Assembly (NCBI GenBank): GCA_963846945.1
Contig: CAWJXX010000005.1
Location: 70,838-134,837 of the forward strand
Reading direction: 5' to 3'
Origin: an uncultured Gemmatimonadales bacterium
Lineage (GTDB): Bacteria > Gemmatimonadota > Gemmatimonadetes > Gemmatimonadales > GWC2-71-9
DNA: 64,000 nt
The position numbers were made by a program, and so were the translations under genes. Below, one piece after another: positions 3,003 through 23,837 of the stretch (its first letter is position 1; every line of letters begins with the position of its first letter). Below the pieces are notes generated by a model that was not told where the DNA came from, made no database searches, and was given only the letters and a program-made list of their open reading frames with translations.

Positions 3003-3016
3003 GACGACTGCGGGAG

Positions 3017-3505
3017 TCAACGCTGCAGCGTGCGGAACGCCTCCGCGCGTCCCCGGGCCAAAACGGCCTTGGGTATTGTGATCAGCGAGGCGCTCCGTGC
3101 CCCCGCGGTGTCCCAGTAGTCGACGAACTCGACGCCCACCCGGATGAGACGGATGCCGGGATCCTCCGGGCCATCGAACCAGGTGCGCAACGCGGCGGTC
3201 CACACCGCCCTGATGCGCGGACGGTCATTCAGGATTTCCGCACGACCGGTGAGCGAGACGTAGGTGCTGCGCCCCTCCGCGGCATAGCCGAGATTCACCA
3301 CGGGATTGGCCCGGATATCACGGACCTTCGTCGACTCCTCGCGCGTCAGGAACCAGACGTGCCCATCGAATTCTGCCTCCTGGGTCAACATCGGGCGGCT
3401 TCGGGGTGCGCCCTCGGGCGTCCGCGTCACGAACATGGCCACGCGGACATCACGGATGAGGTCCGCGACTTTCCGGAGATCTTCCATCGTCTGCATATCG
3501 ACCAT
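3017..3505 (-). CDS. General stress protein 26-like FMN-binding split barrel (pyridoxamine 5'-phosphate oxidase family), paralog 1
   Basis: RSRPM...FDGHVWFLT...ANPVVNLGY...YVSLTGRA...WFDGPEDP...YWD. Start may be 3511. Confidence 0.88.
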   Translation of the reverse strand: MVDMQTMEDLRKVADLIRDVRVAMFVTRTPEGAPRSRPMLTQEAEFDGHVWFLTREESTKVRDIRANPVVNLGYAAEGRSTYVSLTGRAEILNDRPRIRAVWTAALRTWFDGPEDPGIRLIRVGVEFVDYWDTAGARSASLITIPKAVLARGRAEAFRTLQR

Positions 3506-3552
3506 GCGCATGCCCCCAGCGGCGGAGCCTCACCGGCCTGCAAGACCCCGCG

Positions 3553-3650
3553 AAAGAAAAAAGGGCGCGAGGGGCATTCGGTCGCCCGCGCTCGCGCCCG
3601 CATTGACGGCTCCCGAACAGCCGTCCATAAGGCCAGGTTCAATTTTCCTG
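3553..3650 (-). ncRNA. Candidate attenuator leader RNA, copy 1 (upstream of split-barrel paralog 1)
   Basis: Minus strand: CAGG..CCTG, then GCCTTAT g GACGGCT-loop-AGCCGTC a ATG c GGGC, overlapping terminator GGGCGCGAG...CTCGCGCCC TTTTTTCTTT. Confidence 0.6.
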
Positions 3651-3675
3651 CACCTGCACGTCGTCGCTCACTTGC

Positions 3676-3787
3676 AGTATGACGAGCCCTGTCGGAGGCG
3701 GCAAGCCGTGATGTGACGCCTGTCACGCACTTCATGATCGACGCCAGGATCGCGAATCTTGCGCGCATTCCTGGTTCGCACTAACGT
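3676..3787. promoter_or_regulatory. Divergent promoters with a central CRP/FNR-like box
   Basis: Minus: TTGCCG (3704-3699)-17-CATACT (3681-3676). Box TGTGA-cgcctg-TCACG at 3712-3727. Plus: TTGCGC (3759-3764)-17-TAACGT (3782-3787). Confidence 0.6.
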
Positions 3788-3794
3788 GGACGCA

Positions 3795-3894
3795 CGTCGC
3801 GACGACTGGCGTCGCGACGGTCCGATCGGCGAGAACCTGATCTCGCAGTTGCGGGCGCACCGGGGGAAAGTCCCTCGCGAGCGCCCGCTTTTTT
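3795..3894 (+). ncRNA. Candidate attenuator leader RNA, copy 2
   Basis: CGTCGCGACG-actgg-CGTCGCGACG, then GTCCGAT cg GCGAGA-acctga-TCTCGC a GTT g CGGGC, overlapping terminator GCGGGCGC...GCGCCCGC TTTTTT. Confidence 0.62.
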
Positions 3895-3908
3895 CATTGG
3901 AGGGAGTC

Positions 3909-4103
3909 ATGCCACGCGGTGACAAGAGCGCCTACACCAGCAAGCAGCGTCGCAAGGCGCAGCACATCGAAGAGGGTTACGAAGATCGCGGCGTGTCCAG
4001 CAAGGAGGCGGAGCGGCGGGCCTGGGCGACCGTGAACTCCGAGGACGGCGGCGGCAAGAAGCACGGCAGCGGCCGCAAGCATTCGCGGAAGCGCTCGACC
4101 TGA
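3909..4103 (+). CDS. Small basic conserved protein (MPRGDK...KQRRKA.HIEEGYE..G...EAERRAWATVN family)
   Basis: Recognisable conserved small-protein motif; RBS GGAGGGAG upstream. Confidence 0.8.
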   Translation: MPRGDKSAYTSKQRRKAQHIEEGYEDRGVSSKEAERRAWATVNSEDGGGKKHGSGRKHSRKRST

Positions 4104-4174
4104 CGCGCGCCGGGCATCGTCCCAGTCGGCAGGAGACGGCGCGGCGTGCATCGCTGCGCCCTCTCACCGACGAC

Positions 4175-5200
4175 GTGCCCGGCATTTCGCGCAAGCGCCG
4201 GGGCAGCACCTTCCACTACTTCCACCCGTCAGGCCGTCGCGTGCGCGACCAGCCCACGCTCGATCGCATCCGACATCTGGCCATACCGCCCGCATGGATC
4301 GAGGTCTGGATCGCGCCGGATGCCCGCGCCCACATCCAGGCGACGGGCCGCGACGCCCGGCGGCGAAAGCAGTATCGATATCACGCCGAATGGCAGGTCG
4401 CGCGACACCACGCCAAGTATCACCGACTGGGCGATTTCGGGGAGCAGCTGCCCCTGGTGCGGCGGCGCCTCAGGAAGGACCTCCGGGGCAGCCGCACCTC
4501 GCGACCGCAGGTCCTGGCGCTGGCGGTCAGCATCCTGGAGCAAACCTTCATTCGTGTCGGCAATCGCGAGTATGCGAGGACCAATGGCTCCTACGGCCTC
4601 ACGACGCTGCTCGACCGGCACGTGTCGATCGGCAAGCGCACCGCACACCTCTCCTACCGCGGCAAGGGCGGCCTCCATCGTGACGTGACAGTAGAGGGCG
4701 CCGAGCTGGCACGGCTTCTCGCCGCATGCCGGCGCATTCCTGGATCGCAGCTGCTGCAGTATGTGGACGATGCCGGGCGGAGGCATCAGCTCACGTCGTC
4801 GGAAGTGAACCGCTACATCGCCGAGATTGCGGGGAGGGATTTCACCGCCAAGGATTTCAGGACCTGGGGTGCCACACTCACGGCGGCGGCGTGCCTCGAG
4901 CAGCACCGTGCCATTGGCATCGGCGTGCCCGGCAAGGTGGCCATGCGCGCCGACATCGCGACGGTCGCGGAACGGCTGGGCAACACGCCCGCCATCTGCC
5001 GCAAGAGCTACATCCACCCTTCCGTCCTCGAGGCCTATCAGGACGAGACCCTCTGGCGCGCCTGGATGCGCACCGGCGTGAAGACGAGCATCACGCCGCG
5101 CGGACTGTCATCGCGCGAGCGCCGACTCCTGCAGTTCCTCCGCCGTGCAGCCGCAGCGGCCCCGGTGCGACGCCCGGTCGCCGGACGCTCGCGCGGCTAG
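4175..5200 (+). CDS. Bacterial DNA topoisomerase IB
   Basis: IPPAW..VWI, HIQATGRDARRRKQYRYH, IRVGN..Y, GKGG, TAKDFRTW, LGNTPAICRKSYIHP (catalytic Tyr). The frame is open upstream to a CTG at 4100, so the true start may be earlier. Confidence 0.93.
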   Translation: MPGISRKRRGSTFHYFHPSGRRVRDQPTLDRIRHLAIPPAWIEVWIAPDARAHIQATGRDARRRKQYRYHAEWQVARHHAKYHRLGDFGEQLPLVRRRLRKDLRGSRTSRPQVLALAVSILEQTFIRVGNREYARTNGSYGLTTLLDRHVSIGKRTAHLSYRGKGGLHRDVTVEGAELARLLAACRRIPGSQLLQYVDDAGRRHQLTSSEVNRYIAEIAGRDFTAKDFRTWGATLTAAACLEQHRAIGIGVPGKVAMRADIATVAERLGNTPAICRKSYIHPSVLEAYQDETLWRAWMRTGVKTSITPRGLSSRERRLLQFLRRAAAAAPVRRPVAGRSRG

Positions 5201-5697
5201 GCGATCTCCACCGTATCGTGCTCGGACCGGCTGCTGGCGCGATTGCCCGTGAGGGCCGCTTTCGCGATCGCCAGCATGGATGCCACCTTCCCCCCGCGCG
5301 TGTCCCAGTACTCGGCCGTCTCCACGTCCACCCGGATAACGCAGATGTTCGGGTCGTCGGGGCCGTCGAACCATGCGTTGTACAACGGGTGCCAGAAGTC
5401 GTGCACCAGGACGCGGTCATCCAGCACCTCAGCGCGACCGGTGAGCGAGACGAATGTCTCCCTGGCAAGCGATGCGTAGCCCAGGTTCACCACCGGGTTC
5501 GCGATGATCTCGCGAACCATGGCGGATTCCTGGTTGGTCAGGAACCAGACGTGGCCGTCGAAGGGCACGTCCTGCATCGACATCGGCCGGCTCCGGGGCC
5601 GGCCGTCCGCATCCAGCGTGACGAGCATGGTGATCCTGATCTCCTTGATCAGGTCCCCGACCTTGCGCGTACCATCATCACCTTCAGTGGGCAGCAT
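5197..5697 (-). CDS. General stress protein 26-like split barrel, paralog 2
   Basis: RSRPM...FDGHVWFLT...ANPVVNLGY...FVSLTGRA...WFDGPDDP...EYWD; clearly similar to 3017-3505. Confidence 0.88.
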   Translation of the reverse strand: MLPTEGDDGTRKVGDLIKEIRITMLVTLDADGRPRSRPMSMQDVPFDGHVWFLTNQESAMVREIIANPVVNLGYASLARETFVSLTGRAEVLDDRVLVHDFWHPLYNAWFDGPDDPNICVIRVDVETAEYWDTRGGKVASMLAIAKAALTGNRASSRSEHDTVEIA

Positions 5698-5911
5698 GAA
5701 TGGGTCCTCCGTGGCGCAGACAATGGTCGCAGCAGAACATGGCGTCGTCCTTTTCCACGCCGTGCCCGATGATGTGGCATCCACAGTGCTCGCACCGGGG
5801 CGCCAGCACCTGGATGGCGCACTCGAAGCTGTCGAACACATGCTCCTCGCCATCCATGGTCACGGCAAAGGACCTGGCGTAGTCGTTGCCGCAGAGTTCG
5901 CAGACGGCCAT
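5684..5911 (-). CDS. Small Cys/His-rich metal-binding protein (prokaryotic metallothionein-like)
   Basis: CELCGNDY...FDSFECAI..LAPRCEHCGCHIIGHGVE....FCCDHC; RBS GGAGG. Confidence 0.8.
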   Translation of the reverse strand: MAVCELCGNDYARSFAVTMDGEEHVFDSFECAIQVLAPRCEHCGCHIIGHGVEKDDAMFCCDHCLRHGGPIHAAH

Positions 5912-5955
5912 TGGAACCTCCACATGGAGATGAGCGCCCGGGGCTGACGAACAGC

Positions 5956-6055
5956 AAAAAGGCGCACCGGCCCAGGGGGGCACTGATGCGCCTTCGAATC
6001 CGAGGAGCCAGAGTCACTCCCCCATCAAGGCGGACATGGAGCTTTCCCTGCTCCA
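5956..6055 (-). ncRNA. Candidate attenuator leader RNA, copy 3
   Basis: Minus: TGGAGC..GCTCCA, then GCCTTGAT g GGGGAGT-loop-GCTCCTC gg ATT cg AAGGC, overlapping terminator AAGGCGCATC...GGTGCGCCTT TTT. Confidence 0.58.
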
Positions 6056-6066
6056 GTCTCCAACTC

Positions 6067-6186
6067 ACAATAGGGTTCGCCGTGCGGCTGCGCAAGACCG
6101 CAATTGCGCCCAAAAAGAAGTGTGTGACGGGCCGCACCAAAGGACCGAGCAAACACTTGCGCGAATCTCCGGCCCACCCGTAATTG
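6067..6186. promoter_or_regulatory. Divergent promoters with a CRP/FNR-like half-match
   Basis: Minus: TTGCGC (6095-6090)-17-TATTGT (6072-6067). TGTGA-cgggcc-GCACC at 6123-6138. Plus: TTGCGC at 6157-6162 with a weak -10 near 6180-6186. Confidence 0.5.
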
Positions 6187-6203
6187 AAGCAGCGAGAATA
6201 CCG

Positions 6204-6305
6204 GGCTCCATCGAAACACGGATGGAGCCGCCTACGGTCGGGGCGACAGGGCTCCGAGCGGGTGGGCGCAAACGGCACGGGTGCCGGGTGCGCCCTTCTT
6301 TTTTT
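6204..6305 (+). ncRNA. Candidate attenuator leader RNA, copy 4
   Basis: GGCTCCATC..GATGGAGCC, then GCCTAC gg TCGGGGC-gacagg-GCTCCGA gcgg GTGGGC, overlapping terminator GGGCGCA...TGCGCCC TTCTTTTTTT. Confidence 0.6.
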
Positions 6306-6342
6306 ACTGTGATCGCGATCACTCAATGAGGGGATAGCAACA

Positions 6343-6711
6343 ATGATGAACCGAATCCTGAAGTCCGTCGGCCTTTCCGTCGGCGCCTTGATCCTCGTCG
6401 CCGGCGTTGCCTCGGCCCAGGACTCCACGTCGGGCTACAAGAAGCCAGCGGACAGCGCAGCCGCGAAGTCACCGGCGCAGAAGGACGCTGCCGCGCCGAC
6501 GATGGGTGCGATGAATACCGTGGACGTGAACACGGCCACGAAGGAGCAACTGGCGGCCGCGGGCTGGGGCCCGTATGCTGACAAGATCATCGCAGGCCGG
6601 CCGTACAAGAGCATGGATGAGCTGTACCAGAAGCAGATCGTGCCGAAGGACGTGTACGACAAGGGCGCCAACCAGTTTGGCGTGGTCTCCAGCACCAGCA
6701 GCACCAAGTAG
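6343..6711 (+). CDS. Secreted protein with a ComEA-like helix-hairpin-helix domain
   Basis: Signal peptide ending ASA-Q; VDVNTATKEQL...G.GPYADKIIAGRPYKSMDEL. Confidence 0.8.
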   Translation: MMNRILKSVGLSVGALILVAGVASAQDSTSGYKKPADSAAAKSPAQKDAAAPTMGAMNTVDVNTATKEQLAAAGWGPYADKIIAGRPYKSMDELYQKQIVPKDVYDKGANQFGVVSSTSSTK

Positions 6712-6818
6712 CCGTAGGATCAAAGACCGCGGCGGGCCGGGTCATCCGAACAGGGTGGCCCGCGCCGGCCCGGTGTAAGTTCAGCTGAGCAGGGCCCGCT
6801 TCACGAGAGGATCCCGCC

Positions 6819-9800
6819 ATCCCCATTTCGCTGCTCAGTCGTCGGTCCGCCCGTCGCGCCCGTGCGATCGATCCCCCGCTCCGCGCCGAGTTGCTCAGTG
6901 TCGAGCGCCTGGAAGAACAGGCGAAGCTGCTGGCGGCAACCACCACGGTCTCGCGCGAGGCGGAAAGCGACGGTCGCGCCTTTTTCCAGCGGCTCGACGA
7001 CAACGCGACGGTCCTGCGCGAGGCCTATCGGCTGCTGGCGGATGACGTGCATGGCGGGGACTTCGTGCCGCCCGCCGCCGAATGGTTGCTCGACAACTTC
7101 CATCTCATCGAGTTCGAGATTCGCGCCGTGCAGCACGACCTGCCGCCCGCGTATCAGCGGCAGTTGCCGGTGCTGGACGGGCGCCAGCACGGGGGCGCGA
7201 CGCGCGCCTATGCGCTGGCGGTCGAGCTGGTGCGACACACGGATGGACGACTCGACCGGAACCTGCTGCACCGGTTCATGGCGGCCTACCAGACCGTGGC
7301 CCCTCTGACGATCGGCGAGTTGTGGGCGTGGCCGCTGATGCTCAAGGTGGCGCTGCTGGAGAACCTCCGCCGGCTCGCCGAGGAGACGCTGCAGGGTCGC
7401 CGGGCCCGGCACGAGGCAAACGCACTGCTCGACCGGCTGGAGGCCGGCACCGAGGTCCAGTCGCAGCCGCTGCCCGAGACGATGAACACGGCATGGGTGG
7501 TCCAGGTGCTGCAGCGGCTGCGCGAATTCGGGCCATCCGCCGCGCCGCTGCGCGCAAGCATCGAGGGGCGCCTCGCGGCACAGGCACAGACCGTCGAGGA
7601 CGTCATCCGCGCGGAACACCAGGCGCTCGCCATGGGCCAGGTCTCGGTCGCCAACTCGATCACCAGCCTCCGCTTCTGCGGCACACTCGACTGGTCGGAA
7701 TACTTCGAGAGCGTGAGCCTGGTCGAGCAGGCGCTGCGGCGTGACCCCGCGGCCGTCTACGGCCGGATGGACTTCCTCAGCCGGGACCGCTACCGCCAGG
7801 CGGTGGAGCAGCTGGCGCAACCGACCGGCGAGGCCCAGGTGGGCGTTGCCCTGCGATGTGTCGAGAGCGCACGCGAGGCGGCCGAGCGCACGTCGAGCCA
7901 GGATCGCATCGCACACATCGGCTACCACTTGATCGGACAGGGTCGGGCCCGCTTCGAGTCGGAGGTGTCCTACCGGCCGTATTTCATGGCCCGGCTGCGG
8001 CGCTTCCTCACGGCGCGCGCGACGGTCGCCTACCTCGGAGCCATTGGCGCCGTCACGGCACTCCTCGTTGCCGGGGCATTGCGCTACGCAGTGGAGCATG
8101 AGGCGGGGCCGCTCGGCCTGGTATCCATGGCCCTCTTGCTGCTGCTTCCGGCCAGCGAGCTCGCCATTGCGCTGGTGCAGCGGCTGGTCGCGCTCATCAT
8201 GCCGCCGCAGCGCCTGCCGCGCCTCGAACTCGCCGACGGGGTCCCGCCGGAGTCACGAACATTCGTCGTCATCCCGGCCCTGGTCGCCAGCGTCGCCGCC
8301 GCCCAGGAATTGCTGGCGCACCTGCAGGTGCTGGCCCTCGGCAACGCGGACCGCAACGTGCATTTCAGCATCCTGAGCGACTTTGTCGACGCCCCGCGAC
8401 AGGTAATGCCCGAGGACCAGGCGATTCTCGCGAGCCTGCAGGAGGGCATCGATGCACTGAACGCGACGAGCGACCCCGAGCGCGGTGACATTTTCCACCT
8501 GTTCCATCGCGTACGGCAGTGGAACGCCAACGAAGGTTGCTGGATGGGATGGGAGCGCAAGCGCGGAAAGCTGGAGGAGTTCAACCGGCTGCTGCGCGGC
8601 GCCACCGACACCAGCTTTGCGGTGCACGTGGGCGATGCAGCGCTGCTCGACGGGCGGGTGGCCTATTGCATCACCCTCGACAGCGACACGCGGCTTCCGC
8701 GCGACGCGGCGCGTGAACTGATCGGCATTGCATCCCATCCACTCAATCGCGCCGTCTTCGATCCAGCCGTCGGGCGCGTCACCGATGGCTACGGCATTCT
8801 CCAGCCCCGGGTCAGCGTCACCATGGCGAGCGCGGCCGGGTCGCTGTTCGCGCGCGTCTACGCCGGGCATACCGGCGTTGACCCGTATACCACCGCCGTG
8901 TCGGATACCTACCAGGACCTTTTCGGCGAGGGGCTGTTCACCGGCAAGGGCCTGTACGATGTCGACGCGTTCGCCGCGGCGCTCGCGGGGCGCGTGCCGG
9001 ACAACGCCCTGCTCTCGCACGACCTGTTCGAGGGCCTGCACGCACGTCCCGCCCTCGTCACCGACGTGGAGGTCGTCGACGACTACCCGGCGAGCGTCCT
9101 CACCCATGCACGGCGGCAGCACCGCTGGGCCCGGGGCGACTGGCAGATTCTCTTCTGGCTGTTTCCGCTGGTCCCCACCCGCCAGGGACTCGCCCGCAAC
9201 CGCCTGCCGATCATCGGTCGCTGGAAGATCCTGGACAACCTGCGGCGCACCCTGGTCGCGCCCGCCACCGTGCTCGCGTTTGCGGCGGGATGGCTCGTCC
9301 TTCCCGGCAGCCCGCTGGCGTGGACGCTCTTCGTCCTCGCGACCCTGGCCTTCCCCATCTATCCGATCCTCGGCCGACTGTTCGCGGGTCCTGAGCCGAA
9401 GCAGCCGGCACGCGTCTTCTTCCGCCTCATTGGCGAGGACCTTGCCGCCGCGGCCGCGCAGGTCATCCTGCAGGTGACGTTCCTCGCGTACCACGCGTAC
9501 GAGATGGCCCATGCCATCGTGCTGACGCTGGTGCGGCTGATCGTGACGCAGCGCCGCCTCCTCGAGTGGGAAACGGCAGCCGCAGCGGCCGCGCGCGCCA
9601 CCGGACTCACCGGCCGCGGGACCGCACTGCTCTTTTTCGGCGCCATGTCTGCCAGTCCGGCGATTGCCGGCGTGATGGCCATCCTGATCCTCGCGGGACG
9701 ACCTGCGGCGTTCGCGGTAGCGGCCCCGGTCCTGACCCTCTGGGTCATCGCACCGGTCGTTGCCTGGTGGCTGAGCCGGCCGGTCGCAGCGCGGCCCCGC

Positions 9801-12800
9801 CAGCTCACCGAGGATGATCGCCTCTACCTGCGGAGCGTGGCGCGGAAGACCTGGCGGTACTTCGAGCTCTTCATGGGCGCGGAAGACCATGGGCTTCCGC
9901 CGGACAACTTCCAGGAAGTCCCGGCGCCGGTGGTGGCACACCGGACTTCCCCCACCAACATCGCGATGGGCATGCTGTCGACGCTCGCCGCACACGACCT
10001 GGGCTACATCCGCACGCCGCACCTGGTTGCCCGGCTCGAGGCATTGCTCGACACGACCGAGGCACTGGAGCAGCACGAGGGACACCTGCTCAACTGGTAT
10101 GACACGCAGACACTGATGCCGCTGTTACCGCGGTACGTGTCCACCGTGGACAGCGGCAACCTCGCCGGAGCCCTGCTGGCACTCGCGGCTGGCCTCGACG
10201 AGGTGCGGCGGGCCCCGCAGCCGGCGGAGGTCCTGCGCGCGGGGCTTGCAGATACCGCCCGGGTGGCACGGCGCGCCGCGGTATCCCTCTGGGCCATCGA
10301 CGGCAGCCACACGGAAGCGGCATCGCGCCTGGTGGACCTCGTGACCACGCGTGTCCGACACGCTGGAGGAGGATCCGGACGCCGCCGAACGATCAATGCA
10401 GAAGGCCATGGACCTGCGGGGCACGCTGGTCGGCGCCACCAATGACTTCGAGGCGGAAGCCGGCCAGTCGGCGGAATCGCGCGAGCTGCGCGACTGGGCG
10501 CGGGCGCTCGCGGCGGCACTTGCCCGCGACAGCATGCCCGACGCGAATCTCGATGCCCGGCTGGCGTCGCTGGAGCAGCGGTCGTTGCGGCTCGCGGCCC
10601 GCATGAACTTCGGGTTTCTCTACGATCGGCAGCGGCAGATCTTTGCGATTGGATACCGGCTGGCCGACGCCGAGGGACCGGGCCGGCTCGACTCCTCCTT
10701 CTACGACCTGCTGGCTTCCGAAGCGAGGCTCGCGAGCTTTGCCGCGATCGCGAAGGGCGACGTGCCCGAGCGGCACTGGTTCCACCTGGGCCGGTTGCTG
10801 ACCAGCGTGCATGGCGCGCCGACGCTCCTCTCCTGGAGCGCCACGCTGTTCGAATACCTCATGCCGCTGCTGGTCATGCGCAGCTTCCCCGACACGCTGC
10901 TGGACCAGTCGTGCCGCATGGCCGTGCAGCGACAGGTCGACTATGGCCGCCAGCGCGGGGTTCCCTGGGGCATCTCCGAATCGGGGTTCAACCTGGTGGA
11001 CCGGCACGGCAACTACCAGTACAAGGCGTTCGGTGTTCCAGGACTCGGGCTCAAGCGCGGACTCGGCGACGAGCTCGTCATCGCACCCTACGCGACGGCG
11101 CTTGCGGCAATGGTCGACCCGTCCGAGGCGGCGGACAACTTCAGGCAACTCGCGCGCGCGGGCGCCGAGGGACCCTGTGGGTTCTACGAGGCCATCGACT
11201 ACACCAACCGGCGGGACAACGACGACCATGACGTCGCAAGCGGGCGTCGCGGCGTGATCGTCCGCGCGTTCCTGGCACATCACCAGGGCATGAGCCTTGT
11301 CGCCATCGCCAACGCCGTGCTGGGCGATCCGATGGTCCGGCGGTTTCATGCCAATCCGGGCGTCGAGGCGACGGTGCTGCTGCTGCAGGAACGGCCGCCG
11401 CGCCATGCGGCGATCACGCAGCCGCGACCGGTCGAGGAGACCCGGAGCACCGCTCCGGTGCCGGCAGCAAACCTGCGCCGGTTCCGCACGCCGCACAGTC
11501 GTCACCCGCACGCGCAGTTCCTCACCAACGGGGCCTACTGTGCCATCGTCACCAGCGCCGGCGGCGGGGCCAGCAGCTGCCGTGGCGTATCGGTCACCCG
11601 TTATCGCGAGGACGAGACGCGCGATCTCGGCAGCCAGTTCGTGTACCTGCGCGACGTGCGCAGCGGCCTGGTCTGGTCGGCCGCGTACCATCCGACGGCT
11701 CGCGAGCCGGAGGACTACTTCGTCACGCTGCAGTCGGAGAAGGTCACCTTCCGGCGGCACGACGAGGGGATCGCGACGCAGCTGGAGATCGCCGTCTCGA
11801 CCGAGGACGACATGGAGGTGCGGCGGATTTCGCTCACCAACCAGACCGACCGGCCGCGGGAGCTGGAGGTCACCAGCTACGCGGAGATCGCCCTGGCATC
11901 GGCCGCCGAGGACCTGGCGCACCCGGCCTTCGGCAAGCTGTTCATCGAGACGGAGTACCTGGCGGACAGCACGGCGCTGCTCTGCCATCGCCGCCCACGC
12001 TCACACGAGGACGCCGGGCAGTGGGCGGTGCACGTGCTCAGCGTCGAGGGCCGTGCCCGCGGTGCCGTGGAATGGGAGACCGACCGGCTTCGCTTCCTGG
12101 GCCGGGGTCACGATGCCAGCAACCCGGTGGCGCTCGACGGCCGCGCGCTGAGCGGTACCACCGGCGCGGTCCTCGATCCGATCGTGAGCCTGCGCCAGCG
12201 CATCCGGCTCGCGCCCGGCGGCTTCGTGCGGTTGTCCTTCGCGACCGGCATCGCGAGCCGCCAGCGAGGATGCGCTGGCACTGGCGCAGAAGTATCACGA
12301 TCCCAGTGCGGCCGCCCGCACGTTCGCCCTCGCCTTCGCGCAGTCGCAGAGCATGCTGCGCCATGTCGGGGTCAGCAGCGAGCAGGCGCAACTCTTCGAG
12401 CGCCTCGCGTCCCGCGTCCTCTACCTCGATTCGTCGCTCCGGGCCGAGCCCGCCATCCTGGCGCGCAACGTCCTGGGCCAGCCGGGGCTCTGGGCCCACG
12501 GGATCTCGGGCGACCTCCCCATCCTGCTCGTGCGCATCGGTGAGGAGGACGGCATGTCGCTCGTCCGCCAGGTGCTGCAGGCCCAGGAGTACTGGCGCAT
12601 CAAGGGGCTCACCGCCGACGTCGTGATCCTCAACGACAAGCCGGTGAGCTACCAGGACGAGATGCAGGTGCAGTTGACCTCGCTCATCGATACCGGGCCG
12701 TGGGCGGCATGGAAACACCAGCCGGGCGGCGTATTCCTCCTGCGCGGGGACCGGATGGGCGAAGCCGAGCGTGTCCTGCTCGCGAGCGTCGCGCGGGCCA

Positions 12801-15400: not shown

Positions 15401-15422
15401 GCGATCTGTCATCTTCCTTACG

Positions 15423-15485
15423 GGTGATGAACGTCACAAAAGTTATCAGTTGCGACTTGCGCGCCTGAGGTCAATGCCGTAGCAT
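15423..15485 (+). promoter_or_regulatory. CRP/FNR-like box plus promoter
   Basis: gGTGA-tgaacg-TCACA at 15423-15438, an 18 bp gap, then TTGCGC (15457-15462)-17-TAGCAT (15480-15485). Confidence 0.62.
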
Positions 15486-15499
15486 AGTACCAGAAGACA

Positions 15500-15609
15500 G
15501 GGTGTTGCTGCCGTCTGGCATTACCCAAGTTCGAATGGGCGAGAGAGTGGTCTCGCGCGTTGCGGACGTACGAAGGGCCAAGGGCCCGGAGTGCGTCCGC
15601 TTTTGTTTT
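15500..15609 (+). ncRNA. Candidate attenuator leader RNA, copy 5
   Basis: GGGTG..TACCC, then GTTCG AAT gg GCGAGA-gagtgg-TCTCGC gc GTT g CGGAC, overlapping terminator GCGGACGTAC...GTGCGTCCGC TTTTGTTTT. Confidence 0.65.
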
Positions 15610-15635
15610 GTGCACCAGCGGGGAAGGAGGCCGGA

Positions 15636-16100
15636 ATGGACAGCTGGATCGGGCCCGGCATCGAGCCGGCTGCAGAAGCGCGAGCAGGAATGCTGAGGCA
15701 TGTGAGCCTCTGTTCGATAACGACCACCGATGCTGATGGCGCCTTTCGCACCCGCACGGCGCTGGTCGAGCCGGCGCAGCCCATGGGCGAGGGCCTGACG
15801 GTGCGGCTTCTCGCCGATAACGTCGAGCGTGAACTGGTTGCCAATCCGCGGGTGGTCGTCAGCGCCCTGTATCAGGCGGATTCGCCGATCTTCCTGGTCG
15901 TCAACGGGCTGGCGCATATCACCTCGGTCCTCTCGGCGGGCAGCCAGCAACTGGTGCTCCTGGAGGTCGCGGTACAACGAATGGAGTACTGGAGTGCGCC
16001 GGCGGTCCTGCGGCTGGTCAACTTCGGCCGCAAGCTGTTCCAGACCGGTCGCGACGTGGTCGGCGCACCATCTCGCGAATTCGCGGCAGGTCACCCATGA
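15636..16100 (+). CDS. Divergent split-barrel (GSP26-like) protein, paralog 3
   Basis: TTDADG..RTR...ELVANPRV...VVNGLA...LLEVAV..MEYW aligns loosely with paralogs 1 and 2; RBS AAGGAGG. Confidence 0.55.
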   Translation: MDSWIGPGIEPAAEARAGMLRHVSLCSITTTDADGAFRTRTALVEPAQPMGEGLTVRLLADNVERELVANPRVVVSALYQADSPIFLVVNGLAHITSVLSAGSQQLVLLEVAVQRMEYWSAPAVLRLVNFGRKLFQTGRDVVGAPSREFAAGHP

Positions 16101-16495
16101 AAATCGACATGCCTCCCCTCGAGCCGAGCCCGTTGCTGGCGGCGCTGCAGCAGCGCCAGTACCGGCCGCAGCATCAGGTCTGCCTCGTCATCGGATACAC
16201 CTGGGTAAAGCATTGTGATCGAGCGGTACTGTTTCTCGCCTGCGGCACGGCGCAGGCAGGCCGGGTGCGCTACGTCGGACGCGCGGTCCTGGATCTGGGC
16301 ACACGGCAGGCACGGCGCCGCTTTGCGCAGCAGCTTCGACCCCTTCGCCTGCCGATCCATCCGCCGCTGATTGCGTCGCCGCTGCCTGAGGGCATCAACT
16401 GGATCGCCCCGGAGCTGCGGGTCCGGGTGCGGCATCATGGATGGTCGGAGGCGGGCCTGCTGCGGCAGCCACAGGCCGAGATGGTGATCCCGTGA
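16097..16495 (+). CDS. Stand-alone ATP-dependent DNA ligase C-terminal OB-fold-like protein
   Basis: VIGYT...LFLAC....RYVGR...WIAPEL.V.V...W...GLLRQP resembles the LigD/LigC OB domain; ATGA overlap with the upstream gene. Confidence 0.6.
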   Translation: MKIDMPPLEPSPLLAALQQRQYRPQHQVCLVIGYTWVKHCDRAVLFLACGTAQAGRVRYVGRAVLDLGTRQARRRFAQQLRPLRLPIHPPLIASPLPEGINWIAPELRVRVRHHGWSEAGLLRQPQAEMVIP

Positions 16496-17493
16496 GGCAG
16501 GCGCTGCGTCCTCGCATGCGCCGTCCGCTGCGGGACCAGGTGCTGGTGATCACGGGTGCATCGAGCGGTATCGGGCTGGCGACGGCCCAATACGGAGCGA
16601 TTGCAGGGGCGCGCATCGTGATGGTGTCGCGCAACGAGGCGATCCTGCGTGAGCGATCCGAGGAGTTGAATCGCGACGGTGCGACGACGATCGCCGTGAG
16701 TGGCGACGTGACCAGCCTTGACCAGATGCACGCCGTGGCCAGCAGGACGATCGAGGCGTTCGGCCGCATCGACACCTGGATCAACAACGCCGGCGTCTGT
16801 CTCTTCGGGCCGCTGGCCGAGGTCCCGGCACAGGATGCACGGCGCCTCTTCGAGGTGAACTACTTCGGTGTGGTGCACGGCACGCTCGCGGCGCTGCCAT
16901 ATCTCCGGGAGTCCGGTGGCACCGTGATCAACGTCGGCGGCGACGTGGCCCGCGGTGACGCCCCCAGGGGCACTACGCCGCCTCGAAGGCCGCGGTGCGG
17001 ACATTCTCGAACGCCATGCGCGCCGAGCTGCAGGCCGCCGGCGTCAGTATCGTCGTGGTCGAGCCTTCCTCCATGGATACGCCGTTCCGCCTTCACGCAC
17101 GCAGCTATCTCGGCTTTACGCCGCCGTTCACCGAGCCGGTTTACGTGCCGGAAGTCGCGGCCGGCGTGATCCTCCGCTGCGCCGTGCAACCACGGCACGA
17201 AGTACGGATCGGCCCGGGGGCCGCGGCGTGGGGTCGCGCGGCGTTGCCCCGGCCGGAGGGAGCTAACGAAACGACGCCGCGCCTCGTCAGTCGTGGTGAG
17301 CGGGCGAAAGCCCGGCAACCTGATCGAATGGTCGGTACCGGCGGGACAGCTGCGAGGTGGTCATTCGGGACATGTGCGGGTCAATAGTGCCCTGACAGCG
17401 CTGTCCCTCCGGCTCAGTCCCTCTTTTGTCTCGATGGCCTCGGCGGCCATGACGGTCGTGAGTGTGGCAGCGCTGTTGCTGTTGTCATACTGA
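16492..17493 (+). CDS. SDR family oxidoreductase with a hydrophobic C-terminal tail (indels near 16950 and 17290)
   Basis: VLVITGASSGIG, IDTWINNAG, FEVNYFG, then Y-A-A-S-K after the frameshift. Confidence 0.8.
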
Positions 17494-17576
17494 ACCTGCG
17501 TACAACCCAATCCCTCCCCTCTTCGCCGCCCGGTACCGCTGCCTGCAGCGGCCACCGGACGGTCCTGCCTTTCCCG

Positions 17577-19253
17577 TCACTTGATGAAGACCCGGCCCAG
17601 CCCCTGGCGCAGCGCAAACCAGAGAACCTGCGGCAATGACGCACGGCCGTTCCACTGCACGTCGATCAGCCCGACGCGCGGTGGCTTGTCACCATCCGGA
17701 TTGTCATGCCGCAGCTTGAAGGCGTTGGCGTAGAGCGTGGCGAAGGCGAAGCCGATGCTCTTGAAGAACCCGGCCTGCTTGTCCTCGATATCGACCTTGA
17801 AATCCGCGTATTTCGGGATGATGCGCCCCACCGAGCGTCCCTTCCTGATGGTGACGTCGTAGGTGACGACCTGCAGCGACCCCTGAACGACGTGCGCCGG
17901 GAGTGCCTCGGCGATGAAGCTGTTGAGGGCCGTCATGTCCATCGGCCCCATCTGGCCCTTGTAGGCCATGTCAAACTGGGTCGCGGTCAGCGGGACCGTG
18001 AAGGTGACGTCGATCTTTCCCTTCCCCTGCAGGTAGGCGATCGCGTGCATCACCATCGGAGGCACTGCATCACCCCGTCGCACGGGAATCGTGCGCGCAC
18101 CGACAATCTGCGACTCGATCCGTTCCCACGTCATGGTGCCCGTTCCCACGCGGCCCACGCCATGCTCGTGATAGGCCACGCGGGAGTCCCGCACCTCGAT
18201 CGTGTCGATGGCGAGCGGATGGCCCAGCCCCGCGATCCATTGCTGCGGCGAGGCGCGCTTGTGGGACGGCCCATTCGGGAGGCGCTTGTCCGAGAGCACG
18301 TCGATGGTCAGCCCCGACACCGTCACGCGCCGGATGCCGATCGGCCCGGCGACCGTCCGGAGCTTCGCAAAGTCGACACCGTGGAACCGAGCGCTGTCGA
18401 GGGTCACGCGCACCCGATCGCGCCGTACCTTCTGCTGCCGGGTCCACTCCGCGTCCGGCTGCACCGGCCCGAGACGCACGCTGTCGAGGGCAACCGATGA
18501 GTCGGTGAGGTTGACGCGCAAGCGCCCCATGGAGAACGCCGTCTGCCCCGAGCCCAGGACCTGGAGGGTGTCGGCGCTCAGCAAGGCGACCTCACTCATC
18601 AGCGGCCGGCGCCGTTCGAGCGGCACCGACGGGTCGATACGGGTGTTGCGCAGTTCGATGGCCAGGCGCTGCAGGTCGAAAACACTGGCAGTGCTGTCGG
18701 CGAAGCGCTGGGTGAACTGGAGTGCGAGCCTGGGCAGTGACGTACGTCCCACGATGATCACCGGAATGGCGCCGGGAAGGTGCAGCGAATCGCCCAGGAT
18801 GGGCACGCCGGGACGTGCGCTCGCCGCGGAGGACTGGACCGGCACCTCCGGGCGCACCGTCTCGAGTGCCGATGCCGTGATGCTGTCGCAGCCGATGGAG
18901 CTCGCCACCAGGCCCTGCTGGAAGACCAGGCGCAGGGTGTTGATGCCGGTGACGCGGCAGCCCGTGGCCTTCACCGTCAGGACCGGCAGCCGCACCGCGC
19001 GATACTCGTTGCGTGCAGTATCCGTGGTCAACTGGAGCGTATCGACGACGATCCGGCCCGGGAACGCCGTGACCCGGAGCCGGCTCACGGACAGGTGGTA
19101 GACGCTGTCGGATGCGCTCGCGATCGCGCTGATGGCCCAGTCGCGCAGCACGTTGTCGAGGAAGGCGTTGCGCTGCGTCAACGCGACGAAGCCGATGATC
19201 GCGGCGACGACGGCCAGTATCGGGAGGAGAACGCCGCGTCGAATGGCCTTCAT
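17577..19253 (-). CDS. Membrane-anchored beta-rich hypothetical protein (possibly AsmA/DUF748-like)
   Basis: N-terminal TM segment followed by a long beta-strand-rich ORF with good codon bias; the family call is tentative. Confidence 0.6.
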   Translation of the reverse strand: MKAIRRGVLLPILAVVAAIIGFVALTQRNAFLDNVLRDWAISAIASASDSVYHLSVSRLRVTAFPGRIVVDTLQLTTDTARNEYRAVRLPVLTVKATGCRVTGINTLRLVFQQGLVASSIGCDSITASALETVRPEVPVQSSAASARPGVPILGDSLHLPGAIPVIIVGRTSLPRLALQFTQRFADSTASVFDLQRLAIELRNTRIDPSVPLERRRPLMSEVALLSADTLQVLGSGQTAFSMGRLRVNLTDSSVALDSVRLGPVQPDAEWTRQQKVRRDRVRVTLDSARFHGVDFAKLRTVAGPIGIRRVTVSGLTIDVLSDKRLPNGPSHKRASPQQWIAGLGHPLAIDTIEVRDSRVAYHEHGVGRVGTGTMTWERIESQIVGARTIPVRRGDAVPPMVMHAIAYLQGKGKIDVTFTVPLTATQFDMAYKGQMGPMDMTALNSFIAEALPAHVVQGSLQVVTYDVTIRKGRSVGRIIPKYADFKVDIEDKQAGFFKSIGFAFATLYANAFKLRHDNPDGDKPPRVGLIDVQWNGRASLPQVLWFALRQGLGRVFIK

Positions 19254-19403
19254 TGGCCGCGGCAGCAGGGCGTGGACGCGACAATCGGGAGTGCCGGAGC
19301 GCTCCCGATGTCGCATGGCTCAGCGGAGTGGCCTCCGCAGGGCCTCATGCGCGTGCGATTCCCGTCTCCGCACCTGAAGGTGTGAACGCTACCCTCCGAG
19401 TCA

Positions 19404-19577
19404 TCACAGGGCTTTCCTGCCGCCGATGAGGCCCATGACAAAGGTAACGAGGAACACGACGAGGAACACGAAGAAAAGCGTCTTGGCGATGTCCGCGGAC
19501 GCAACCGCAATCCCGCCAAACCCGAAGAAGGCGGCTACCAGCGCGAGCACGAGAAACGCGAGTGCCCAGCGTATCAT
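19404..19577 (-). CDS. DUF1328 (YtjA-like) small membrane protein
   Basis: Manual translation MIRWALAFLVLALVAAFFGFGGIAVASADIAKTLFFVFLVVFLVTFVMG; RBS GGAGG. Confidence 0.9.
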   Translation of the reverse strand: MIRWALAFLVLALVAAFFGFGGIAVASADIAKTLFFVFLVVFLVTFVMGLIGGRKAL

Positions 19578-19579
19578 GT

Positions 19580-19795
19580 TTACCTCCCCGCGGCCGCGTT
19601 GAAGCGCCGCTCGAATTCAGAGACCTGCTTTTCTGCCGCATCGCGGGTCGTGCCATAGCGATACTGGATCTGGCCGATCAGCTGGTCGCGCCGGCCGCCG
19701 ATCACGTCGAGGTCGTCGTCCGTGAACCGGCCCCACTGCTCGCGCACCTTCCCGCTGAATTGCTTCCAGGACCCCTTGATCTCATCCCAGTTCAT
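19580..19795 (-). CDS. csbD: CsbD/YjbJ family stress protein
   Basis: MNWDEIKGSWKQFSGKVREQWGRFTDDDLDVIGGRRDQLIGQIQYRYG; RBS AAGGAGG. Confidence 0.92.
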   Translation of the reverse strand: MNWDEIKGSWKQFSGKVREQWGRFTDDDLDVIGGRRDQLIGQIQYRYGTTRDAAEKQVSEFERRFNAAAGR

Positions 19796-19909
19796 CCTGA
19801 CCTCCTTGAAGCCGCCGAATGCGGCGCGGTCGCCGCAGTGAGCCCCCCAGTCTGGCTCACCGCAGCGCCGGCCTTCAACTATGCGCTGCACCCGGCGGCA
19901 GGACACCGG

Positions 19910-20003
19910 AAACGAAAAAGGCGCTGGAGATCAACTTGCTGATCTCGACAGCGCCTTCGGCTTGCGGAACGCTCCGCCCGCCAAGGTGGCCCGAAACGCG
20001 GCC
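19910..20003 (-). ncRNA. Candidate attenuator leader RNA, copy 6 (csbD leader)
   Basis: Minus: GGCC..GGCC, then CCTTGGC gg GCGGA-gcgt-TCCGC aa GCC g AAGG, overlapping terminator AAGGCGCTG...CAGCGCCTT TTTCGTTT. Confidence 0.68.
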
Positions 20004-20023
20004 TATGTCCTTCCTGCACTTCC

Positions 20024-20075
20024 ATACTATGGCGGATCGATATCGTGCGCAAGCCGTCTTGTGACGCCAGTCACG
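20024..20075 (-). promoter_or_regulatory. Promoter with a CRP/FNR-like box
   Basis: TTGCGC (20052-20047)-17-TAGTAT (20029-20024). TGTGA-cgccag-TCACG at 20060-20075. Near-identical to 3701-3729. Confidence 0.65.
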
Positions 20076-20106
20076 CATCTCGACATCGAGCCAGTTTCAG
20101 CCTGCG

Positions 20107-20832
20107 TCATACATGATCCAGCAGCAGCTCCAGTCGATGCCTGAGGTCGCCCAGTGTCTTCGACTTGAAGGCCGTCCGCGTCTCCTCCAGCACCCGCACC
20201 GTCTCCTGGATGGCGGACTGCAGCTGCGCGCCGCGGGGGCAATTCATGAGCTGGCAGGGATTGCCCTCCACCGGCTGGCGGTTGAGTGCCTTGCTCAGCT
20301 GCTCGAGGTCCGTGAGTGATCCCATCACGTTGCGCAGGGTGAGGGCAAGGAAGACATCCGGCGATGCGCCCATGCCGGCTGCGGGCGGAATGGTGAGTGA
20401 CTGGAACTCCTCGCGCCACGCCTTGAGCCGCTGTTCGGTGCGCTGCATGGCCTGATAGGCCTGGAACCGGCCCACCGAGGTCGTCGACCTTTTCGAGCAG
20501 CTCCTCGAACACCACCGGCTTGGTGAGATAGGCCGCCACCGGCAACTCGATGCAGGCGATGGCGGAGCGGACCGAGGGATAGCCCGTCAGGATGATGACG
20601 GGAAGTCCGCCGCTGCGCTCGGCGATCTGGCGCACAAGCTGAAGGTCGGAGTTTCCCGGCATCTCCAGGTCGGTGATGAGCAGGTCGAAAGCTCCTCACC
20701 CACCTTCGCGATCGCCGCCGCGCCATCCTCGACGGTGACGCACTCGTAGCCATCCCGTCGCAGCAGGTCCGCGGTGGCGTTCAGGAAGATGGGCTCGTCG
20801 TCGGCCATCAGGATGCGGCCCTTGCTGCTCAT
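20107..20832 (-). CDS. Response regulator: REC domain plus an unrecognised helical C-terminal domain (indels near 20690 and 20480)
   Basis: RILMADDEP...DLLITDLEMPG...ILTGYPS...YLTKP. The C-terminus has CQLMNC and no obvious HTH. Confidence 0.85.
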
Positions 20833-23731
20833 GTTGTTCCTCCACGTTGCCGACGGAACGGAATGCTCACGATGAATCTCCGCTCCGCCTGCTTCATTGT
20901 CGCCGATCCGGATCTGGCCGTGCGCGGCCGTGACGGTGCGTCGCACCAGGGCCAGGCCAAGGCCCATGCCGCCGGTCTGCAGTCGCTTGTCCTTCGTGGT
21001 GAAGAACGGCTCGAAGATCCGCTCGCGCAGTGCGGCCGGCACCCCGGGCCCCTGGTCGAGGACCTGCAGCTCCAGCGTCTCGTCGCGCACCTGGGCACTG
21101 ACCCGGATGCAGGCGCCCGGGGGCGATGCGTCGGCCGCGTTCTGGACCAGGTTGTAGATGATCTGCCGCAGCATGGCGGCCGAGAGCGGAACCGTGGTCG
21201 GCACGGCGCTCAGGTCCGTCTCGATAAGCAGCTTGTTGCCCCGGTTCACCTGCTCGAGGAAAGCCACGGCGTCCCCGACGACGGTGTGGAGTGACGCCTC
21301 GCCGGTACTCTCGGTTTCGGGGCGATAGGTCTCGTAGAGCTGCCGCGTGACGCGTGCGATGCGGCCGATTTCCCGCTCGATGGCCCCCACGTACTTGTGG
21401 TGCGGATGGCTCTCCGGCACCGCGTCCTTGATCAGGAGGAAGGAATTCTGGATGCCGGCCAGCGGATTGTTGATCTCGTGCGCGACGCGGGCGGCCACGC
21501 GACCCATGGCCGTGAGGGTGTCGACTTCCTGCAGCGTCGCGGCCGCCTGGCGCGCCTCGGTGACATCGCGCGCCTCCACCAGGATCTGGGTCGCCTTTCC
21601 CTCGGCGTTCAGGATCGGCTTCACGGCGATCTCGATCACGAGCATGCGGCCGGTGCCGTCCTGGGCCTGCTGCTCGTAGATCCTCGCCGTCCCGCTGTTC
21701 GCACCCTCACACGCCTCCTGCAGCAGCTGCTGCGCCGCCGGGTCGGATTTCCACCAGAGCGCTTCCCACCCGAACAATCCCGTCACCTGTTCGGCCGTCA
21801 GGCCGGCACGGTCGAGCGTGGTCCGGTTCGCCTCCAGCACGCGACCATCACAATCGAGGAGCAGCTGGAACTGGAAACCGCTGTCGAAGATGGCCCGGAA
21901 CCGTCGTTCGCTCGCTTCTCTTGCCGCGTTGGTGCTCCGCGCCTCGGTGACGTCGGCGCTGATGCCGAGCATCCGGACCGGTCGGCCGGCCTGGTCCCGG
22001 TCCACCACGCGCCCGCGATCCACGATGGTGTGCCAGTCTCCCTTGCCACTCAGGACACGATACTCGGCCTCGAAGCTCTCGCTCTGGCCGCGGATGTGCG
22101 ACTCGAGCTCGTTCTCGACCCGTTCCCGGTCCTCGGGATGCACCAGTGACGTCCATCCCTCGAGGTACGGATCGGCACGCGCGGGATCGTAGTGCAGGTA
22201 GGTCCACAGTGCCGGGCTCCGCGTCGCGAGACCGGTAATGAGGTCCCACTCCCAGATGCCGTCGGTGGTCCGCTCGAGCGCCGCGGAGAGCCGCGAGCGC
22301 TCGCTCTCGCGCGCGCTGCGCCAGGCGGTGCGTCCCAGCCGCAGGGTCACCGGGAGCAGGCCCGTGACGACGAGGCCCATGAAGAGCACGGCAGCGGGCA
22401 GCTCGGTGCGCGGGCCCGCATTCGCGACCCCGCTCACCGCGGCGCGGAGCGACCAGTGCATGTCACCGGCCCGGACCGGGACCTCGCCGACCCAGCCACC
22501 TTCGGTCGGTGCAGCATCACCCGCGACCGCCGTATCCGTACCGAAGGCGGTGAAGCGATAGCCACCGAGGGTGTCGGCAATCGCCTCGGCGAAGAGCCGC
22601 TCGGCACGCATCACGCCGGCCAGTGCGCCGGCGCAGGAGAGGGAGTCGCAGATCGGCGCGACGATGGCGAAGTAGCGCAGCTCGAGGTCGAGCGGCAGGA
22701 CCGCGACCGTATCGCCCGGGCGCAGGGGCATGCGGCCCGCGTGGCGCTGCCAGGCCTCGCGCACGCTCGCAACGTCGTACGGCGTGGTCACCCGGCACCA
22801 CCAGTTCATCGCTCCCGGCGTTGCGCAGGAGCATGGCGGTGTCGAGGGCCGGGATGTCGCGGGCGAGCGAGCGCAGGTTGCGCTCCTGCTCGCCTGCCGA
22901 CGTGTCACGCGTGGCGCGCTCCGCCGCGCGCCGCATCGACCGCACTGCCACGTCGACCTCCCGCAGGACCCCGCGGCGCTCCGCATCGAGCGCCTGCGAA
23001 GCACCGCTGCGGGCAATCTCCCGTTCACGGTGCTCCAGGGCGCGCCACAGGAAGAGGACCGTCATGAGGCTCGCCGCGCCCGCGACCACCGGCAGCCACG
23101 CGGGCGGTTCCGTGATGGTGATCCCGCGTGCCCAGACGATCACCACCAGCATGACCCCCATCAGCAGGCCGCTGATGAGCGTCTGCACCGACGCGCCGGT
23201 AATGGCGGCACCCGACCCGGTCGTCGCCACACCCACGGACCGCGCAAAAAACACGGTGAGCGACAGCGCGACCAGCACGAAGCCCGCGAGAAGCATGGTG
23301 AGCTGTACCACGTCCGAGCGGCGCTCGATGGTGGAGACGTACAGGGCGAGGGCCGCCGCGCCCATGATGAGCACCGACGCCACGGTCAGGCCGCCTGCGG
23401 GAATCGGGATTGCCGCGACGAAGAACAGCAGCGCCGTGGCGCACATGGCAAGCGCAAAGGCCGACGCGAGCAACATCCGCCAGCGATCGCCCTCGACCAG
23501 GTTCCACAGGCCGACCGCGAGTGCCACGAGCCCGAGGGACGAGAGCAGCGGCAGCGGCGGCCACGCCGGTGCCGGCGACACGAGCCAGTCCAGATGAAGG
23601 ATATGACCGGCGAAGCCCGCGAACCCGAGTACGAAGACCGTCACCGCGACCACGCGCGCCAGCCCGTGGGCGAGCGCGATGCGGCCGCTGCGGTGAATCG
23701 GTGCGACGCTGCGAAGCGCAGGATCGGTCAT
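20829..23731 (-). CDS. Multi-TM sensor histidine kinase with two PAS domains (indels near 22790 and 20880)
   Basis: About 7 N-terminal TMs, PAS (GIWEWD..VHPED), VAHEINNPL H-box, NLVQNA, DQGPG, FEPFFTTK, GMGLGL. Confidence 0.9.
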
Positions 23732-23746
23732 GAGTTACCCCAAATG

Positions 23747-23837
23747 AAAAAGCACGGATACCGCGCAAGCTGCGCGGCCCCCGTGCCTTCGGCTTGCGAC
23801 CCAGCCACTCGCCCGCCAAGGCCAGCACTTCTGGCCT
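23747..23837 (-). ncRNA. Candidate attenuator leader RNA, copy 7 (sensor kinase leader)
   Basis: Minus: AGGCCAG..CTGGCCT, then GCCTTGGC gg GCGA-loop-TCGC aa GCC g AAGGC, overlapping terminator AAGGCACGG...CCGTGCTTT TT. Shares CCTTGGCGGGCG...CGCAAGCCGAAGGC with copy 6. Confidence 0.68.

Follow-up and report, generated by a model that had tools for sequence, protein, structure and literature searches.

What decides whether transcription runs through seven 5' leaders that each hold an intrinsic terminator in one stretch of Gemmatimonadales DNA? The window analyzed here is that whole stretch of 64,000 nucleotides (nt), positions 70838-134837 of contig C5 in assembly G000 (2.76 Mb, 60% complete), which the names of homologs assign to Gemmatimonadales. 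We found that the leaders carry a conserved antiterminator hairpin, P2, which overlaps the intrinsic terminator. They are likely switched by the neighboring response regulator, whose output domain would bind the hairpin once a histidine kinase has phosphorylated the regulator. The order of elements was the same in all seven leaders: promoter, a hairpin P1, P2, terminator, gene. The copies are as follows.

3556..3633, minus strand: copy 1, P2 at 3596-3633 and overlapping intrinsic terminator; promoter at about 3676-3704
3820..3895, plus strand: copy 2, P2 at 3820-3856 and terminator; promoter at 3759-3787
5955..6031, minus strand: copy 3, P2 at 5990-6031 and terminator; promoter at 6067-6095
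6230..6304, plus strand: copy 4, the loosest, P2 at 6230-6267 and terminator; -35 at 6157
15529..15607, plus strand: copy 5, P2 at 15529-15567 and terminator; promoter at 15457-15485
19914..19987, minus strand: copy 6, P2 at 19953-19987 and terminator; promoter at 20024-20052
23745..23822, minus strand: copy 7, P2 at 23785-23822 and terminator; promoter at about 23857-23885; heads the kinase-regulator operon

When the seven leaders were folded, segments cut before the terminator formed P1 and P2, and full-length segments formed the terminator, into which the 3' strand of the P2 base is drawn. The terminator form was predicted to be favored over P2 by 2.0 to 9.3 kcal/mol in 7/7 copies, and with P2 kept, the hairpin that remains was predicted to be shorter and to stand off from the U tract. 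An earlier, sequence-only reading of the window had claimed that seven leaders place an intrinsic terminator between a promoter and a gene, that the terminator 5' arm begins with the 3' strand of the P2 base, and that sequence strings are shared by copies 6 and 7 and by copies 2 and 5. All seven segments folded in this way, the competing folds were confirmed in each, and both sets of strings were found in the sequence. Its claim of a promoter before each leader stood for six copies, which have a promoter of the form TTGC..-17-TAnnnT with 27 to 43 nt between the end of the -10 and P2; copy 4 has a -35 and a poorer -10. Its layout of P1 plus P2 held for the conserved overlap of P2 and terminator and less well for P1, which is variable in sequence and only enriched for hairpins. 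A generic sigma-70/terminator scan of window positions 2500-22000 recovered no promoters and one of six terminators. Attenuation by a leader peptide was judged unlikely by inspection, the -10 lying just 27 to 43 nt before P2. A soil metatranscriptome contained seven low-depth contigs of relatives, six of them on or just behind csbD and one across the copy-6 terminator (19782-19965); contigs give neither strand nor ends, DNA is a possible source, and none of them was counted as support.

Genome-wide, a descriptor scan of 561 terminator-like hairpins found P2-like overlap at only 15, an upstream promoter at 13 and both at 6 (overlap and promoter association, Fisher p=1.8e-7). The descriptor was tuned on the window copies and missed copy 4, and we regard covariation as the stronger evidence. 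The same scan found three further copies, two on contig C9 and one on C12. We then relied on two covariance models. R1, built from 11 sequences, had at least two matches in 12 of 41 related genomes and a single weak match in 4. R2 was built from 100 aligned Gemmatimonadales copies (R1 regions plus regulator loci), after exclusion of the weak R1 matches L028, L029, L030, L082 and L001:7188 and the L067/L022 rows. In the genome of the window, R2 identified ten strong copies, namely the window's seven, two of the three descriptor finds and C5:32323; it missed C9:182221, which the descriptor had found. A distant set comprised 80 regulator loci from a GTDB genome scan with a distant regulator alignment. 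Titles in this set include KSB1, Planctomycetota, Ca. Scalindua, Ignavibacteria, Deltaproteobacteria, Nitrospiraceae, Methylococcales, Holophagales, Verrucomicrobiota, Chloroflexota, Eisenbacteria and Zixibacteria, among others; two loci are Gemmatimonadota.

The 100 Gemmatimonadales copies share a core that reads roughly RCCUU-GNC-G-G-stem-loop-stem-N-A-GNC-G-AAGGC, followed by the terminator. A 3' bulged G was present in 99/100 of them and in all 58 R2 matches of the distant set, and the internal-loop G in 91/100; bulged G, loop A and the UU/AAG core were invariant in the 58. The apical loop varies in length and sequence, with conservation concentrated in the lower stem. Across the 13 P2 pairs of the 100 copies, 90.6% of cells were paired, compared to 70.3% after shuffling, with 276 two-sided changes versus 87, and sliding the alignment reduced P2 pairing to 27 to 58%. 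In 69 matches from loci outside the training set, pairing was 89.5% versus 79.2% in shuffles. Pairing and two-sided changes thus exceed shuffles, as expected from the sequence-only reading. The competing terminator pairing, which draws on the 3' strand of P2, is kept in 86.9% of cells. Where the P2 base changes from UU/AA to CG/CG, the 3' arm of the terminator follows (CCGC-type ends in 18/23 versus 2/71), and G-U outnumbers A-C by 56:9 in the 100 copies (45:6 in a second count). P1 is variable in sequence, with a hairpin in 92/100 copies versus 49 shuffled. The conserved unit is P2 with its terminator overlap, and the two competing folds are under joint selection. Rfam 15 gave no matches in the window at the gathering threshold and, by E-value, none on any copy (window 3000-24500) or in nine distant loci, so that the check for a known family came back empty. 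A role for CsrA was considered and dropped: CAGG(A/G) lies near the 5' end in 27/100 Gemmatimonadales copies versus 10 expected, yet in 2/58 versus 5 elsewhere. Some leaders hold tandem motif-terminator units, two gates in series (L046:9563-9780, L073:8253-8540 and L100:1849-2064); those of L046 and L073 precede csbD.

The candidate for the factor that works these leaders is encoded next to copies 6 and 7.

20107..20832, minus strand: response regulator, candidate antiterminator, with receiver, long helix and C-terminal domain (about 20110-20400)
20830..23731, minus strand: membrane PAS histidine kinase, first gene behind copy 7, frameshifted in the assembly

The kinase, with several predicted membrane helices and PAS domains, lies directly upstream of the regulator and is likely its cognate sensor; directly downstream comes copy 6, which has a promoter of its own. 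A kinase-regulator cluster was present in 12/12 motif-rich genomes (clustering of fetched islands). A query with the regulator tail in the wrong reading frame also picked out the same regulator gene in 12 genomes with at least two motif matches.

Within the phylum Gemmatimonadota, the output domain occurs in 36/301 genomes. We ran R2 on 32 regulator-positive and 48 regulator-negative genomes of this phylum (G005 was scored regulator-negative solely from the wrong-frame search). The motif was present in 31/32 positives (best E≤5e-6; up to 17 copies per genome); 22 positives had contributed training sequences, and among the other 10 the motif was found in 9. In contrast, 44/48 negatives had no match and four had one weak match (7.7e-4 to 8e-3), leaving 0/48 at E<7e-4. 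The difference was also seen within genera g1, g13, g31, g40 and g62. In the distant set, the Gemmatimonadales-trained R2 gave 58 matches at E≤7.5e-4 in 50/80 loci, 43 of them on the same strand and ≤600 nt behind the regulator (1.4 expected). Common to the 80 loci are the regulator (80) and kinases (62), with no other cluster in more than 11, a count that sets aside apparent antisense shadow frames of regulator and kinase. When 40 of the 80 were searched as whole genomes, 33 contained the motif (G323 among them, with one weak match), at up to 11 copies. In a class unrelated to Gemmatimonadota, the regulator occurs in 5/71 genomes and the motif lies beside it in 5/5; among the 66 regulator-negative genomes of that class, the motif was found in 1 at E≤1e-3 and in 6 at E≤0.01. 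The sequence-only reading had proposed an antitermination regulon that is protein or ligand dependent. The conserved architecture, the covariation and the leader position support the regulon, and the co-occurrence with the regulator narrows the dependence to most likely protein. That reading had also counted the two-component system among the targets. Copy 7 does head its operon, and since the output domain co-occurs with the RNA across phyla, the system is probably the controller as well.

The intact regulator copy in L089 (1061-1774) has 238 amino acids, a canonical receiver followed by about 120 residues. Pfam on the whole protein returned PF00072 only, the output region matched no Pfam or NCBIfam family, and a PDB sequence search of the regulator returned only receiver domains among the matches listed. 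The output part has 717 homologs at 90% clustering (541 at 50%). This domain is about 90 residues long, helical and basic. Its motifs CxxxxCPR and TKxxFKSKxLxxLRxxLE are nearly invariant, with conserved basic residues (K93%, K92%, R99% and R87%) and a median net charge of +4 over the 18 residues of the second motif. Receiver Asp, Thr and Lys are invariant. The AlphaFold2 model (pLDDT 85, pTM 0.53) has two helices, the first of them long, then a Cys loop and a helix-loop-helix; fold searches with the output domain gave generic helical matches dominated by the long helices, none above background, and an Atlas search with the regulator tail gave one weak lead (0.81). In the window, two compensating 1-nt shifts fall in the receiver part of the regulator, which is intact in relatives. 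The breaks in regulator and kinase are probably sequencing errors, because other genes of the assembly are split too (a GH94 gene is in pieces), and the in-frame join of kinase and regulator was taken as an indel error because the two have separate starts in six relatives. In four Planctomycetota loci (L148, L162, L164 and L183), a second, divergent regulator paralog with a YKSKQL variant lies in tandem directly upstream.

Which genes, then, stand behind the switch? In the window, besides the kinase-regulator operon, they are the following.

3017..3505, minus strand: copy 1 target, pyridoxamine-oxidase-like protein, PF16242
3909..5200, plus strand: copy 2 targets, 64-amino-acid basic protein, then bacterial topoisomerase IB
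5197..5911, minus strand: copy 3 targets, 75-amino-acid Cys-rich protein, then a second PF16242 protein
6343..6711, plus strand: copy 4 target, likely exported protein with a weak helix-hairpin-helix match
15636..17169, plus strand: copy 5 targets, 154-amino-acid unknown protein, DNA-ligase C-terminal-like protein, short-chain dehydrogenase
19580..19795, minus strand: copy 6 target, CsbD-like protein

We take the PF16242 target of copy 1 to be of the GSP26/YdaG type. Copies 2 and 3 are each followed immediately by a small conserved protein (3909-4103, 64 amino acids, basic; 5684-5911, 75 amino acids, Cys rich) with no Pfam match and no convincing NCBIfam match. Elsewhere in the genome, the copies on C9 and C12 precede a DUF1328 gene, a short open reading frame that resembles ferritin-like/DUF892 starts (no Pfam match) and a 134-amino-acid protein without a Pfam match, and the copy at C5:32323 precedes a DUF892-like gene. 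Over the Gemmatimonadales as a whole, targets include CsbD, DUF1328, DUF892, DUF5670, Ku, topoisomerase IB and PF16242 proteins, along with short-chain dehydrogenase, small exported proteins and sensor kinases. We presume these to be general-stress genes by analogy with the SigB, RpoS and EcfG regulons. Outside the order, the targets included a gas-vesicle protein, chemoreceptors, CheW, PAS kinases and further response regulators. The stress-gene regulon of the sequence-only reading thus holds in Gemmatimonadales, where covariance-model matches in related genomes precede CsbD, Ku, topoisomerase IB and the like, and gives way in other phyla to chemotaxis, gas-vesicle and signaling genes. Inside the stress island, window positions 6891-15400 hold a large GH94/glucoamylase-domain gene, split into several frames and presumably cyclic beta-1,2-glucan synthase-like. 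In seven genomes of one genus, an extracytoplasmic function (ECF) sigma factor gene lies near a motif leader (L055:3840-4436 and orthologous loci), possibly as a downstream layer of the regulon.

The promoters differ between lineages. A TTGC promoter lies upstream of 48/99 Gemmatimonadales copies (1.5 shuffled), and promoters that we take to be sigma28-like precede 11/58 distant-set leaders (0.1 shuffled). Six loci with such promoters before the motif (L161, L205, L165, L149, L191 and L196) are titled Pirellulales, Planctomycetota, Zixibacteria and Eisenbacteria, and three precede gvpA-like genes. An exact GTGA-N6-TCAC box is found upstream of 34/99 Gemmatimonadales copies (0.2 shuffled) and in 0/58 distant-set leaders. 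Its four occurrences in the window (3713, 6309, 15424 and 20061) all adjoin motif leaders, three of them as follows.

3713..3726, no strand: GTGA-N6-TCAC palindrome between the divergent promoters of copies 1 and 2
15424: GTGA-N6-TCAC box upstream of copy 5
20061: GTGA-N6-TCAC box upstream of copy 6, behind the regulator stop codon, as is the copy 6 promoter

In Gemmatimonadales, this DNA box, which we presume to be CRP/FNR-like and perhaps bound by a CRP/FNR-family protein, is a second, lineage-specific layer at many promoters.

Several observations weigh against control by the regulator. G042 has a divergent regulator, and the motif was not found there. No motif lies within 7 kb in 30/80 distant loci, and 7/40 whole genomes had no match, two of which had matched in the locus search. 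The regulator-negative genome G401 has a shortened motif-like match (L241:1501-1560, E=1e-5). A Shine-Dalgarno sequence with an open reading frame within 300 nt follows only 27/53 distant-set matches. The alignments are model fitted, which inflates pair counts and the G-U excess, and related genomes do not count as independent cases. The window's own regulator and kinase are frameshifted. Finally, a co-transferred cassette with the regulator acting indirectly could also give the co-occurrence. The G401 hairpin itself overlaps a terminator and keeps the basal stem and the bulged G, with the apical stem nearly lost.

The indirect routes differ in what would touch the RNA. The hairpin might be a riboswitch that responds to a small signal which the kinase-regulator pair makes or controls. 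This would account for the co-occurrence as well and would suit stress, chemotaxis and gas-vesicle targets, which resemble second-messenger regulons. We consider this quite unlikely: the conserved core, a single small hairpin in which about four unpaired positions are conserved and the apical loop is free, is small for an aptamer, the roughly 90 helical residues of the output domain match no enzyme family, and no synthase gene is common to the 80 loci. Alternatively, P2 could be bound by an unlinked, widespread RNA-binding or RNA polymerase-associated protein that the regulator controls by contact. In its favor, the output domain resembles no known RNA-binding fold, and contacts between proteins are often made by helical domains that contain Cys. 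Such a partner would, however, need conservation in some ten phyla without ever being linked; of five motif-rich genomes, just one has CsrA, and the most conserved surface of the output domain is basic. This route therefore seems unlikely.

Two further explanations remove the switch from the RNA. DNA is the target of most response regulators, and with the GTGA-N6-TCAC box so frequent before Gemmatimonadales leaders, the regulator might be a DNA-binding activator that recognizes the box, or the repeat as DNA, the leader being a constitutive attenuator or a short regulatory RNA. The box is absent, however, from the other-phyla leaders, where RNA and regulator remain paired; it is lineage specific and its distribution does not follow that of the regulator family, an argument against the regulator as its binder. 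The output domain matches no helix-turn-helix family, and the G-U bias and three-way covariation indicate single-stranded RNA with two alternative pairings, making a DNA target very unlikely. That these are ordinary 3' terminators, with an overlap due to chance or duplication, is extremely unlikely. The distant-phyla matches do lie mostly directly behind the regulator gene, as an operon terminator would, but 6/7 window copies lack a gene immediately upstream on the same strand, a promoter of copy 6's own follows the regulator stop, genomes carry up to 17 copies far from the regulator, and P2-like overlap is as rare among terminators as the descriptor scan indicated.

If the regulator acts on P2 directly, termination would be the default, the terminator winning by 2 to 9 kcal/mol without the factor. 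An activated PAS kinase would phosphorylate the receiver, the long helix would dimerize the regulator, and the basic Cys-containing helical hairpin would grasp P2 by its bulged G and the G/A loop next to it. The 5 to 8 nt common to both folds would then stay in P2, leaving a hairpin off the U tract, and polymerase would read through. Copy 7, at the head of the kinase-regulator operon, would add positive feedback. The output would be the general-stress regulon in Gemmatimonadales; in other phyla, the same pair may serve chemotaxis, gas-vesicle and signaling genes.

How does this compare to known antiterminators? In the available text of two sources, ANTAR systems (EutW/EutV of Enterococcus faecalis, PdtaS/PdtaR, AmiR and NasR) likewise have a kinase-paired receiver, a coiled coil and a small helical output, and act on many leaders, including their own operon's, through a hairpin overlapping an intrinsic terminator (PMC3369931; PMC12591593). 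The layout of receiver, coiled coil and small helical domain is why we liken the protein logic to EutW/EutV, as far as it is described there (PMC3369931). Unlike in those systems, PF03861 was found neither in the regulator nor in six motif-bearing genomes (G000 and five motif-rich genomes, 96 to 100% complete; the same search found ANTAR in 2/5 others), and hhalign of the regulator family against one ANTAR domain gave a probability of 1%, with the aligned stretch within the receiver. ANTAR RNA consists of two small hairpins read at hexanucleotide loops, whereas here the conserved features are a bulged G and an internal loop within one longer stem, and the apical loop is free. For RNA anatomy, compared by description, the closest match is RAT of BglG/SacY/LicT (PMC5393181; PMC12591593, both in the text available). 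RAT is one hairpin, its stem broken at two points and its apical loop variable, and its 3' end (8 nt in licS) doubles as the start of the terminator, according to the part of PMC5393181 available. In contrast to BglG/SacY, CAT (PF03123) was found in 0/1 own genome and 0/5 other motif-bearing genomes (control positive in 4/14 known genomes), the candidate protein itself is without PRD/PTS control, a histidine kinase provides the input, and stress, chemotaxis and gas-vesicle genes take the place of sugar uptake among the targets. Lacking ANTAR and CAT domains as well as paired hexaloops, the RNA-regulator pair belongs to neither ANTAR nor BglG/RAT. Transcriptional riboswitches share the mutually exclusive antiterminator and terminator in a 5' leader; they differ from this family, which has no Rfam match, few conserved unpaired nucleotides and tight linkage to one protein family. 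The sigma-factor stress regulons of SigB, RpoS and EcfG match the Gemmatimonadales gene set (CsbD, DUF1328, DUF892, Ku, topoisomerase IB and PF16242), but here the promoters look to be of the housekeeping sigma-70 type and control would come after initiation.

Among RNA-binding outputs of two-component regulators, ANTAR and CsrA are named in the available part of one review (PMC12471899), and the RNA-binding antiterminators in the parts of reviews at hand are CAT, ANTAR and HutP (PMC12471899; PMC12591593). A literature search with subscription papers outside its scope returned no description of this RNA or domain in the text available, and the main text of two motif surveys (PMC8632094 and PMC11109978) does not contain "response regulator," although their supplementary tables could hold the motif. 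The RNA is thus probably undescribed and the regulator output probably a new RNA-binding domain. It is likely that output domain (CxxxxCPR...TKxxFKSKxLxxLR) and bulged-G hairpin form, beside ANTAR and CAT, a third family of antiterminators that bind RNA under signal control, one that extends over about ten phyla, and that antitermination, not an alternative sigma factor, runs the Gemmatimonadales stress response. If so, the short list of RNA-binding regulator outputs would be extended by a new domain with a defined target of 35 to 40 nt, and a large unannotated protein family would gain a function. Its small size makes the pair accessible to work in Escherichia coli or in vitro, and it might find use as an orthogonal kinase-to-RNA switch. 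With the RNA model, the regulon can be read directly from the genomes of uncultured phyla, and for Gemmatimonadales it offers a first concrete hypothesis of how stress genes are switched.

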